DNA from: an uncultured Spirochaetia bacterium
GTDB taxonomy: Bacteria > Spirochaetota > CALGPD01
Assembly (NCBI GenBank): GCA_964449345.1
Contig: CAYUYT010000004.1
Span: forward strand, 1-47,202
Length of the DNA: 47,202 nt
Reading direction: 5' to 3'
The position numbers and the translations under genes were made by a program. The notes below the pieces were generated by a model. It saw nothing but the letters and a program-made list of their open reading frames with translations. It had not been told where the DNA came from and ran no database searches. Numbering within the stretch: the stretch's first letter is position 1; every line of letters starts with the position of its first letter. Of the stretch, positions 29,096 to 39,845 are shown piece after piece.

Positions 29096-29168
29096 GCTGC
29101 TGTAGCTCAGTCGGTAGAGCAAAGGACTGAAAATCCTTGTGTCGACAGTTCGATTCTGTCCGGCAGCA
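29096..29168 (+). tRNA. tRNA-Phe (anticodon GAA)
   Basis: Manual cloverleaf: acceptor gctgctg/cggcagc, D-arm tagctcagtcggtagagc, anticodon stem aagga/tcctt with loop ctGAAaa, T-arm gacag-ttcgatt-ctgtc. No encoded CCA. Confidence 0.9.
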
Positions 29169-32981: not shown

Positions 32982-33176
32982 ATCTTTGGCAGAGGAACTG
33001 CCTTACAGTAAACTTTAATTATTATAAAATATATTTTTATTAATTTTTATATTAGTTAAAAGTTTAAAAGGGAACAATAAATAGTACCAATTTATTAATT
33101 ATTAAGTTATAGTTTTTATAAAAAACACTTTACTTTTCACTTGAAATTATTATAATGATTTATTAATTTTACAAAT

Positions 33177-33953
33177 TTGGAGCATATTTTGGAAATTAGT
33201 AAAAAATATGATAATAATTATTTGAAGCAAGTCATATTCCGAATTGACTTTTCCCAATTACTTGAAGTAAATAAAAATGGGTTAAAACCTGAAATTCAAA
33301 GAGAATTTGCGAAAATTAACTTTAATGATTTTTCTAAAAGAGAGTTAAGAGAATTTGAAATTATTTTTAACAAAAGTTTACGTACTGATAAAGATCAATT
33401 AATTGATATTTATGAATTTTTAGATAAAAGCAAAAACAATAAAATAACTATATGTGAAAAATTTATGATAATTGAAAATTTTGAATACGTAACTTTTGAG
33501 GAATTTAAAAAAATAATATCAAATATTGTTAATATTTTTAGTACTCATTATTCAATAAATATAATAAGGCTTGGTTTGAGGTATATTAATGAAATTGTTA
33601 TTGATGAAGGGAATCCTTTTGAATGGTCAAATTTTATTAATAATTCACTAATTTTTTCTTTAAATAATTTTTTAGAATCAGATAAAGAAAATGTGTGTAG
33701 ATACATCGGAAGATTTGATATTAACAAAGAGGACTATATTTTAGCAATAAAATATGGGATATTAAATAGCCTATATCCTGAGAAAATTGCAAGAAAAGAA
33801 TTTACTCTAGATTTTGACTGCAGCACTAAGGATGTTGAGAATAATGATGATTTATTTAAAAAACTTGACATATTCCATTCTGACATAAATAAATATTTTG
33901 AGAAAAGCATAGATGATGGATTAAGAAAAAAAATGGGAGAATTAGATGAATAA
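33177..33953 (+). CDS. hypothetical protein, TIGR04255-like by pattern (island gene A)
   Basis: 258 aa. N-terminal YLKQVIFRIDF and central IIRLGLRYINEI resemble the uncharacterised TIGR04255 family as I remember it (unverified). TTG start at 33177, or more likely TTG at 33189, 6 nt after GGAG. Very AT-rich. Confidence 0.6.
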   Translation: MEHILEISKKYDNNYLKQVIFRIDFSQLLEVNKNGLKPEIQREFAKINFNDFSKRELREFEIIFNKSLRTDKDQLIDIYEFLDKSKNNKITICEKFMIIENFEYVTFEEFKKIISNIVNIFSTHYSINIIRLGLRYINEIVIDEGNPFEWSNFINNSLIFSLNNFLESDKENVCRYIGRFDINKEDYILAIKYGILNSLYPEKIARKEFTLDFDCSTKDVENNDDLFKKLDIFHSDINKYFEKSIDDGLRKKMGELDE

Positions 33954-34131
33954 TATTTTTTATAATTTTGACGAGGAATTAACTTCTTCATTATTGTCTA
34001 ATCAATACAACATAGGGTTCAAAAATGCCCAAATAGAACTAGACGAAATTTTTGAAACACTAGACGATGACCGGTATTTAAAAACTAAAGCTTACACAAA
34101 AAATATAGGTTATGTTAAAAAGCAAAATTGA
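33946..34131 (+). CDS. small acidic hypothetical protein (island gene B)
   Basis: 61 aa. ATG overlaps the stop of gene A by 8 nt, and its own stop overlaps the gene C start by 20 nt. D/E-rich. An open frame of this length is unusual in ~25% GC DNA. Confidence 0.5.
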   Translation: MNNIFYNFDEELTSSLLSNQYNIGFKNAQIELDEIFETLDDDRYLKTKAYTKNIGYVKKQN

Positions 34132-34669
34132 GAATCAATATTCTAAACATAATAAAAGCAGAATTTGTCAAGGCGATATTGTTAAAGATTTTAAATTTAC
34201 AACTGTCACCACGGAAAGCAACGTCATGGAAAATGGTTTTCCCTATGTTGTCGTATTCTCGCAAGATTGTGATCTAGCTAATAATAAGGATAAAGAAGAT
34301 AACGGAAAAATTATTAATAATCAGTTTTTAGTAAATATTTTATTTCTACCGGCTTTTCCAGCAAAAATTTTAAGAGAGGGAAAACATTTAGAGGATTTTT
34401 GTGAAAGATTACAAGACCGATTAAATACACAACGCTGGAAAACAATTAAAACTAATAATAATTCTAGGTATCATTTTTTAAATGGATATTCAAATTTTCA
34501 GATACCTGATTTAGTTATTGATTTTAAACTATATTTTACTTCAAGTGTTGATAATTTTATAAATATGCATAATACTAATTATTTATCTACTGTTAATGAA
34601 TTGTTTCGAGAGAGAATGGTTCAGAGATTTTGCGATTATTTTAACCGTATTGCCTTGCCGGAAATTTAA
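34112..34669 (+). CDS. hypothetical protein with CQGDIV...YVVVFSQDCDL pattern (island gene C)
   Basis: 185-aa ORF. I recognise no family with confidence. Confidence 0.6.
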   Translation: MLKSKIENQYSKHNKSRICQGDIVKDFKFTTVTTESNVMENGFPYVVVFSQDCDLANNKDKEDNGKIINNQFLVNILFLPAFPAKILREGKHLEDFCERLQDRLNTQRWKTIKTNNNSRYHFLNGYSNFQIPDLVIDFKLYFTSSVDNFINMHNTNYLSTVNELFRERMVQRFCDYFNRIALPEI

Positions 34670-34725
34670 CATTTTTTTAAATTTTAATTATAAGTGCCAT
34701 TTTTAGTAAAATCCTCTAACAAAAA

Positions 34726-34968
34726 TTATTTATTTGCTAAACCAATTTTTTTTCCTATCTTTTTTAGTATTCCAATTATTTCATCAGCGCTTTTTTCAAA
34801 TTCTTTTTTAGCATTTTTTTCATTTTCTTTAATCCATTCAATTACTTCATCAAAAAGTTTTCTTTTTTCTTTCCATTTTGCATCATGATCTAATGATAAA
34901 ATTCCTTTAACTTCTTTTTGAAATTCTTCGGGATAATATTTTTCAAGCAACCTTTTATAATAGTTCAC
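34726..34968 (-). CDS. small K/E-rich helical hypothetical protein
   Basis: 80 codons, convergent with gene C. Only a GTG start, no clear RBS, and the start lies inside the 42-bp repeat. The plus-strand ORF 34694-34888 is an F/S-rich shadow. Confidence 0.4.
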   Translation of the reverse strand: MNYYKRLLEKYYPEEFQKEVKGILSLDHDAKWKEKRKLFDEVIEWIKENEKNAKKEFEKSADEIIGILKKIGKKIGLANK

Positions 34969-39716: not shown

Positions 39717-39727
39717 TAATCTACTCT

Positions 39728-39811
39728 GCCGGAGTGATGGAATTGGTAGACGTGCCTGACTCAAAATCAGGTGGCTTTATAGCCGTGCGAGTTCGAGTCT
39801 CGCCTTCGGCA
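39728..39811 (+). tRNA. tRNA-Leu (anticodon CAA), long variable arm
   Basis: Manual fold: acceptor gccggag/cttcggc (one G-U), anticodon stem cctga/tcagg with loop ctCAAaa, variable arm gtggctttatagccgt, T-arm gcgag-ttcgagt-ctcgc. No encoded CCA. Confidence 0.9.
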
Positions 39812-39845
39812 AAGGGGCAAAAAAAAGACGTTTAACTTTTTATAG

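Follow-up and report, generated by a model that had tools for sequence, protein, structure and literature searches.

Small toxin–antitoxin (TA) gene pairs of the MazEF, Kis-Kid and PemIK kind share a compact layout, in which, as in mazE–mazF and kis–kid, a small gene overlaps the start of the gene for a MazF-fold protein. Type II antitoxins typically carry a DNA-binding domain. Three-gene TA systems are also known, including TAC (HigB-HigA with a SecB-like chaperone), omega-epsilon-zeta, PaaR2-PaaA2-ParE2 and HipBST; here three genes are co-transcribed, and the third protein (a chaperone, a repressor or part of a split toxin) controls the TA pair. Larger toxins of the Kid/MazF fold, of about 170 residues, occur in the type III systems ToxIN and AbiQ, which act in abortive infection and whose antitoxin is a repeated RNA. 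In this work we describe a cassette of three overlapping genes, which we call A, B and C, on contig CAYUYT010000004.1 of an uncultured Spirochaetia bacterium (the whole 47,202-nucleotide (nt) stretch that was analyzed is referred to as the window). The three genes stay together across bacteria and archaea, all three are under selection, the cassette is horizontally mobile, and C has the fold of MazF-type toxins in its structural model. Whether the cassette is a self-contained, mobile, tripartite TA-type module, acting in addiction or abortive infection, seems to us an even call, and this is the explanation we prefer. The features central to the argument are the following.

33189–33953, plus strand: gene A, TIGR04255-family protein of 254 residues (longest open reading frame (ORF) from 33177, 258 residues, TTG start)
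33946–34131, plus strand: gene B, small protein of 61 residues, ATG start
34072–34128, plus strand: conserved C-terminal motif of B, R43–N61, RYLKTKAYTKNIGYVKKQN, basic and β-strand-like
34112–34669, plus strand: gene C, protein of 185 residues, ATG start, predicted MazF/PemK-like fold, putative effector
34262–34273, plus strand: codons of the QDCD motif of C (Q51, D52, C53, D54), with Q51, C53 and D54 invariant in 131 of 131 triads

Like MazEF, Kis-Kid and PemIK, the cassette has a small gene directly upstream of, and overlapping, a gene whose product is predicted to have a toxin fold, and it is likewise mobile, patchy in its distribution and sometimes present in several copies. Because the B/C layout mirrors that of mazE–mazF and kis–kid, we counted it in favor of C as the effector. 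The locus also displays the features expected of type II TA loci in general: a compact co-directional operon, a small overlapping gene, patchy mobile spread, variable neighbors and multi-copy genomes. However, no sequence or profile similarity links it to MazEF, Kis-Kid or PemIK; C is about 70 residues longer, with its own set of invariant residues that includes a cysteine; B lacks an AbrB or ribbon–helix–helix (RHH) domain and has a conserved part that is basic instead of acidic; and here an obligatory third gene of 254 codons, A, precedes the pair.

A row of three genes forming a mobile, stand-alone cassette recalls the tripartite TA systems. Searches of Pfam and NCBIfam found no SecB, zeta, ParE, HipA or helix–turn–helix (HTH) family in A, B or C, and no component family is shared with the known tripartite systems. 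The toxins of ToxIN and AbiQ are similar to C in size, but the element upstream of C is a protein-coding ORF under purifying selection. No tandem-repeat array was found before C (only scattered two-copy matches in AT-rich DNA), and the 50 best fold matches of C in the PDB include no ToxN structure. A full-text literature search for 'TIGR04255' returned nothing, and broader searches of the TA literature gave no description of the triad. The trio had been called uncharacterized when the window was first annotated, and the names attached to its members in all sources, either 'hypothetical' or 'TIGR04255 family', agree with this.

Three genes kept together across genomes

The initial annotation, made from the letters of the window and a list of its ORFs, reported three same-strand ORFs chained by overlaps of 8 nt (A/B) and 20 nt (B/C). 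These coordinates and overlaps are exact in the ORF listing, with the start of A now refined to 33189. It also proposed that the trio forms one translationally coupled unit, and the conservation of the arrangement in other genomes bears this out. One genome per species (185,579 species) was scanned with patterns from the C alignment, which confirmed 126 relatives, and the sequence of 80 loci was retrieved. In 78 of these 80, the gene immediately upstream of C, and in the same orientation, is a TIGR04255 gene corresponding to A, separated from C by about 140–200 nt; of the two exceptions, one is cut by the end of its contig and the other is the locus labeled L002, discussed below. The reverse survey started from 80 metagenome loci picked by the A motif alone, and in all of the 64 with enough downstream DNA, C was found downstream of A. 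The gap between A and C contains a B ORF of 39–115 codons (median 62) in 126 of 133 unique triads. The overlap between A and B is present in 70% of the 126 homologous triads, with a modal length of 8 nt, and that between B and C in 82%, with a modal length of 20 nt, while in nearly all triads both junctions either overlap or are at most 15 nt apart. As the 8 nt and 20 nt seen in the window are the modal values among these triads, its overlaps are more than a chance arrangement. The overlapping stop and start codons would couple translation of the three genes and fix the A:B:C ratio.

So strict a linkage of A and C suggests that they depend on each other. Distances among A proteins co-vary with those among C proteins (r = 0.70; Mantel 0/999). 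When all flanking ORFs of the loci were clustered, no conserved fourth gene emerged. Apparent B–C fusions (the N-terminally extended C representatives P0187, P0190, P0216 and P0267, and the long 'C' ORFs of loci L017, L050 and L059) were rejected, being upstream read-through in the C frame that is not B-like.

The triads of three loci (L071, L074 and L079) are fragmented under genetic code 11 and intact under code 25, in which TGA encodes glycine; two of the three are from Gracilibacteria and L074 is from an unclassified 'uncultured bacterium'. The fragmented triads of such Gracilibacteria-type loci were therefore rejected as an artefact of code 11 translation, and lineages using code 25 will be under-counted by ORF surveys that assume code 11.

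L002 (7700–8564) is the only locus in which A has been destroyed. Only about the last 25 codons of A are left there and the rest is replaced by an unrelated minus-strand ORF, with B and C intact. Its C protein has a histidine at Arg166, a position that is arginine in 129 of 131 triads. This single case would fit the view that cells can bear C without A only if C is impaired.

Predicted folds and conserved residues of the three proteins

Protein C matches no Pfam (E ≤ 1), NCBIfam or PADLOC family, and gives a weak match (E = 2.4e-6) to phrog_4575, whose function is unassigned. Its family comprises 67 close homologues and, more widely, 2057 cluster representatives at 50% identity (E ≤ 1e-3; 293 at E ≤ 1e-30), or, when the profile is broadened, 1,952 clusters at 90% identity, named 'hypothetical' or 'uncharacterised' in all sources. 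Some relatives have C-terminal extensions, in which no recognizable domain was found. Neither sequence nor profile searches found relatives of C in the PDB.

Modeling with AlphaFold2 on 30 homologues gave a confident structure for C, with a predicted local distance difference test score (pLDDT) of 87.6 and a predicted template modeling score (pTM) of 0.83. When the model was compared with the PDB, the top 50 matches were all MazF/PemK/EndoA toxins, with template modeling (TM) scores of 0.52–0.70 on the target (mostly 0.60–0.70), probabilities of 0.91–1.0 and an identity of about 10%. BFVD, an independent viral library, also gave PemK/MazF toxins as its two best matches (E = 5e-4, TM 0.70). As modeled, C has the SH3-like barrel fold of MazF and Kid. 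Seven residues of C are identical in all 131 triads (Q51, C53, D54, R119, D137, F138 and K139), a further eight are present in 98% or more (Q20, G21, D22, G90, R166, E167, R172 and R179), and H92 and H121 in 95%. From this pattern we infer that C combines the MazF fold with a different center, which is probably catalytic.

B matches no Pfam, NCBIfam or PHROG family, and PADLOC gives a chance-level match only (E = 0.025). With the Pfam, NCBIfam and PADLOC searches empty for both proteins, the initial view that B and C belong to no nameable family stands. The ratio of nonsynonymous to synonymous substitution rates of B lies at about 0.12–0.5 in most informative pairs, overlap regions excluded, which marks B as a real gene under purifying selection. 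At larger distances its amino-acid divergence is 2–3.5 times that of C, and its composition is disorder-like (rich in K, S, E, T and D, poor in L, A, W and C); both are as expected of a labile, disordered partner. The most constant part of B is its C-terminal motif. In 70 right-anchored sequences it is of the type Y-x-K-[TS]-x-x-K-x-K-hydrophobic-x-Y-hydrophobic-x-K-x-D, the last 22 residues have a median isoelectric point (pI) of 9.8, and the overlap with C constrains just the last 5–9 codons. The N-terminal part is variable and disorder-like, and about 40% of sequences have an aromatic pair, [YF][FY] and most often YF, within their first 30 residues. B had originally been likened to a small acidic antitoxin. 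The protein in the window is indeed acidic (pI 4.65), but acidity is not a trait of the family, whose median pI is 6.6–8.4 with an acidic N-terminal part and the basic C-terminal motif.

The small size of B, its richness in S, T and K, and its combination of conserved and variable segments might also suit the precursor of a ribosomally synthesized and post-translationally modified peptide (RiPP), processed or modified by A and C, and the invariant cysteine of C together with its histidines could suggest a thiol enzyme. We regard this as very improbable. Neither a RiPP-type enzyme nor a protease or exporter accompanies the triad, no RiPP family was found in Pfam or NCBIfam, the fold relatives of C are toxins and not peptidases, and the module is present in organisms of the DPANN archaea and the candidate phyla radiation (CPR) that have minimal metabolism.

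The initial assignment of A to a TIGR04255-like pattern proved sound, as A scores 115.1 bits against the NCBIfam TIGR04255 model (cut-off 30) and aligns with the full model, positions 1–252 of 252. A has no Pfam or PADLOC match, and among members of its family matches to DNA-binding families are limited to isolated, single-member ones (E ≥ 0.01). The model of A (pLDDT 95.9, pTM 0.90) contains two tandem β-α-β4-α repeats, which we interpret as a two-repeat β-saddle like that of the TATA-binding protein (TBP). Such tandem units are also seen in the TBP-domain superfamily (TBP itself, the N-domain of RNase HIII and the N-domain of glycosylases), but the structural matches of A, to S-adenosylmethionine decarboxylase (AdoMetDC) and TBP, are weak (TM 0.3–0.43, root-mean-square deviation >10 Å) and there is no sequence similarity to that superfamily. 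No relative of A was found in the PDB by sequence or profile search, nor any close solved structure. To our knowledge, a TBP-like β-saddle has not been described as a TA component, and nucleic-acid binding by A is a conjecture drawn from the model. In the 254-residue numbering, G129, R131, Y132, G190, D208, D210 and E238 are invariant and R127, N134, R171 and R246 nearly so, and the invariant residues suggest a ligand-binding or active site.

Members of TIGR04255 more distant from A can occur in other settings. A stand-alone homologue of 238 residues (P0175; L087, 4001–4717) lies between genes for a leucyl aminopeptidase and an AI-2E transporter; it is indexed in 146 collection blocks, and all 24 contigs that were read (24/24) show the same stand-alone context. 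In a Methanobrevibacter metagenome-assembled genome (MAG; L174, 3001–4611), two genes of 138 and 146 codons, overlapping or adjacent, come after a TIGR04255 gene; they match no family and are unrelated to B and C, and this pair may be a different TIGR04255 partner set. At a further locus (L175, 309–2793; also L176), a TIGR04255-like gene is followed first by a gene for a 274-residue protein, in which an Xre-like antitoxin HTH scores below threshold (E = 1.3e-3), and then by one for a 289-residue protein containing 'VVTSNDCDI', which resembles 'VVLSQDCDL' of C. This locus hints at a remote variant of the same architecture but falls short of significance (hhalign probability 9.6%), and it was not used as evidence. 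Judged by their gene neighborhoods, the A subfamily is strictly linked to B and C, while more distant TIGR04255 members stand alone or have other partners.

Mobility and genomic neighborhood

Two further features define the extent of the cassette.

32982–34725, no strand assigned: acquired segment (approximate), from the thrC stop to the end of the minus-strand host gene, by comparison with contig L180
34726–34968, minus strand: ORF of 80 codons between C and DUF1330, with a GC content at third codon positions (GC3) of 0.11 and no family

The initial annotation held the trio to be horizontally acquired, on the grounds of its AT-richness and its position between housekeeping genes, and this view is now supported from several directions. 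The related contig L180 carries a thrC gene with 81% nucleotide and 90% protein identity to that of the window. There, thrC lies about 100 nt from a homologue (79% nucleotide identity) of window positions 34746–34946, and the cassette is absent between them. In the window, thrC and the small minus-strand ORF are 1744 nt apart, with A, B and C in between. Since thrC and the small ORF are nearly adjacent in L180, the cassette represents a discrete insertion or deletion relative to that contig, and as the 80-codon ORF is conserved beside thrC there, it is a real gene of the host backbone, outside the cassette. The exact insertion junctions could not be placed against L180, the intergenic DNA being too diverged, and a search around the cassette gave neither significant direct repeats on its flanks nor att-like sites. 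Genes for tRNA-Phe(GAA) (29096–29168) and tRNA-Leu(CAA) (39727–39812) flank the wider region; neither adjoins the cassette, which is therefore not a tRNA-targeted island.

Base composition agrees with the earlier description of the cassette as more AT-rich than its surroundings. Its GC content is 24.9%, against a window mean of 32.9% (standard deviation 3.8% for 1.5-kb windows), and position 33001 is where the 1.5-kb stretch with the lowest GC in the window starts. The cassette genes have GC3 values of 0.17–0.24 and the other genes of the window 0.25–0.40, the 80-codon ORF excepted.

The distribution of homologues is extremely patchy and crosses the boundary between bacteria and archaea. Bacterial relatives are found in Spirochaetota, Elusimicrobia, Omnitrophota, Desulfobacterota, α-, β- and γ-Proteobacteria, Bacteroidota, Bacillota, Chloroflexota, Actinomycetota, Planctomycetota and many CPR lineages. 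Archaeal relatives come from methanogens and DPANN: Methanosarcinales and anaerobic methanotrophic (ANME) archaea, Methanobacteriales, Methanothrix, Aenigmarchaeota and Nanoarchaeota. The top match to C of the window is itself archaeal, with 51% identity. Two MAGs carry two copies of the cassette each (L025 and L032; L034 and L066).

Some copies lie on mobile elements. On the 31.5-kb Methylocystis iwaonis plasmid NZ_CP143318.1 (L089, 3020–6567), genes for a recombinase, an 'abortive infection family protein' and two WGR-domain fragments are followed by the triad, which the NCBI pipeline names 'TIGR04255 family protein / hypothetical / hypothetical'; this gene order is a small defense-like cluster on a plasmid. 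In a family of phage-like contigs (L081–L086), the triad (7069–8600 in L081) is an oppositely oriented insert between genes of the 7-deazaguanine type (PTPS, radical SAM, GTP cyclohydrolase I and ParB_N-like) and genes of replication (DUF1064, an SNF2 helicase and Lin1244_N). One triad copy adjoins integrase and SmpB, and at L173 (1944–2613) a HepT/MNT (HEPN/nucleotidyltransferase) TA pair lies about 400 nt upstream of the triad on the opposite strand. Taken together, the insertion or deletion relative to L180, the low GC, the patchy spread and the plasmid and prophage copies establish that the cassette is horizontally mobile.

Carriage by phages raises the question of whether the module mainly serves the phage, or a plasmid, as a 'moron' gene set for superinfection exclusion, counter-defense or host takeover, with chromosomal copies as remnants of these elements. 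Copies in prophage or phage contigs near tail genes or integrase, the phage-like contigs with 7-deazaguanine genes and the weak phrog_4575 match of C would fit such a role, as would a weak, partial structural match of the C model to an 848-residue Caudovirales protein (TM 0.44 on C, 0.12 on the target). Yet only 3 of 2.9 million IMG/VR contigs were matched (in one the match lies next to genes for tail and tail fibres, in another close to an integrase), and C had no match among 50,697 GenBank phages. Most chromosomal copies have no phage genes nearby. A phage-serving role, which we consider highly unlikely, overlaps with the TA-type module that we prefer rather than excluding it.

Putative expression signals of the cassette are listed here.

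33129–33156, plus strand: candidate sigma-70-like promoter, TTTACT-16 nt-TATAAT, about 30 nt upstream of A, a consensus match alone
33179–33182, plus strand: Shine-Dalgarno GGAG of A, 6 nt 5' of the in-frame TTG at 33189
33935–33939, plus strand: Shine-Dalgarno GGGAG of B, within the 3' end of A and 6 nt 5' of the ATG at 33946

The spacing of the GGAG and the public gene call for A (P0068), which is also of 254 residues, place the start of A probably at 33189 rather than 33177. The promoter candidate is the joint-best match of the region (10 of 12 positions), and sigma-70-like sites are no more numerous in this AT-rich DNA than shuffling would lead one to expect. A search for intrinsic terminators at the locus gave none. 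Just 3' of the thrC stop there is a short hairpin, GGCAG-AGGAA-CTGCC (32988–33002); it lacks a T-run and was not classed as a terminator.

Weighing a toxin–antitoxin-type module

The initial annotation saw a TA-like layout in the cassette. The MazF/PemK fold of the C model adds support to that comparison; what does not carry over is membership of C in MazF by sequence or profile, and B has no DNA-binding domain of the kind found in antitoxins. As far as the outcomes named beforehand as fatal to the proposal could be checked, the three genes co-occur almost constantly, sit in no consistent metabolic operon and have no housekeeping homologue.

In the mechanism that we propose, C would be a growth-arresting effector, with a predicted MazF/Kid-type barrel and about 70 extra residues. 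It has an invariant polar set of its own (Q51-x-C53-D54, H92, R119/H121, D137-x-K139, R166-E167 and R172) and probably acts on nucleic acid. B may be a largely disordered, labile neutralizer or adaptor that docks by its conserved basic C-terminal strand motif. A would be the obligatory third partner that keeps C harmless, whether as a sensor or receiver of the trigger, as a regulator or as a modifying enzyme. Toxicity of C, its neutralization by B and/or A, its target and a role against phages or in stabilization are all inferred here, and our confidence in these individual roles is lower than in a general tripartite mechanism.

A number of observations weigh against this proposal. For C, the Foldseek E-values are borderline (5e-4 to 1e-3), and TM-scores normalized to C itself are 0.34–0.47. 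PemK_toxin (PF02452) is matched by 0 of 30 members of the C family at E ≤ 10, and hhalign of C with a seven-sequence MazF/Kid/ChpB alignment gave a probability of 1.4%, the control alignment itself being valid (E = 3e-47 to the PDB MazF). By eye, the positions equivalent to the catalytic Arg (of the G-x-R-P strand) and Thr/Ser of MazF appear as F/P and P-A-[FY] in C, in a local alignment of just 22 columns. C is also not basic, with a median pI of 6.2. In B, no RHH, AbrB, HTH or Phd DNA-binding domain was found by Pfam, NCBIfam and PHROG scans. With its many invariant charged residues, A resembles an enzyme or a ligand-binding protein more than a classical repressor, and solo TIGR04255 genes exist, hence A-like proteins can function without C. 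The hint from L002 concerns one case. The defense HMMs of PADLOC-DB v2.0 match A and C with no family, and B only at the chance level given above. Finally, the 138 nearest neighbors match 160 Pfam families, mostly of diverse housekeeping functions, with few restriction–modification (R-M), helicase or integrase genes. No defense-island enrichment was seen among these neighbors in a raw tally that has no formal background control, and the defense context initially claimed for the cassette is not borne out. The module is scattered in the manner of a TA cassette and is not a regular resident of defense islands.

Several of these points would also be accommodated by a non-toxic accessory complex, in which A, B and C bind or process a nucleic acid or small molecule, or have a regulatory function, to the benefit of the host in some niche, and the barrel of C is a scaffold. 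The missing MazF sequence signature of C and the apparent loss of the catalytic positions, the fact that neither A nor C is basic, the mainly housekeeping neighbors, the lack of a defense-model match and the solo TIGR04255 genes all favor it. On the other hand, patchiness across domains, presence or absence relative to a close contig, carriage by prophages and a plasmid and multi-copy genomes are typical of selfish or defense modules, no transporter, regulator or metabolic gene recurs with the triad in the flanking ORFs, and the strict A–C linkage suggests mutual dependence. We therefore consider an accessory complex unlikely, if not negligibly so.

The residues of A raise another alternative, in which the roles are reversed: the enzyme-like A is the effector or toxin, C is a non-catalytic inhibitor, a regulator or a CcdB-like binder, and B is an adaptor. 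A has the larger invariant charged set (R127, R131, D208, D210, E238, R171 and R246), C appears to lack the catalytic residues of MazF, and in some TA systems, such as higBA, the toxin gene comes first, a precedent that might by analogy apply here. Nevertheless, in at least one lineage (that of P0175) an A-like gene is commonly found on its own, unlike what is seen for a toxin, and it was A that was lost at L002, where B and C were kept and C acquired a substitution. C too has an invariant set that looks catalytic (Q51, C53, D54, R119, D137 and K139), and its structural relatives are all toxins. A reversal of roles thus appears to us quite unlikely.

Returning to the tripartite TA-type module that we prefer, a more specific version can be put forward only tentatively, and we think it more doubtful than probable. 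The cassette may represent an unrecognized class of tripartite TA or abortive-infection systems, spread over bacteria and archaea, in which A, an enzyme-like or sensor-like protein with a TBP fold, would control, through the disordered adaptor B, a MazF-fold effector with a new, cysteine-containing catalytic center (Q-x-C-D / R-x-H / D-x-K / R-E). Homologues occur in the cultured genera Shewanella, Vibrio, Marinobacter, Pseudoalteromonas, Piscinibacter, Methylocystis and Methanosarcina, which makes the hypothesis directly testable. If it is correct, it would provide the first functional context for TIGR04255, a curated family without a known role, and for the C family of about 2,000 clusters. 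The repertoire of TA and defense systems would gain a three-part architecture with two folds or roles new to it, joining a TBP-like partner to a MazF-fold effector with a different catalytic set, in a module that moves among bacteria, CPR organisms, methanogens, DPANN archaea, plasmids and phages.

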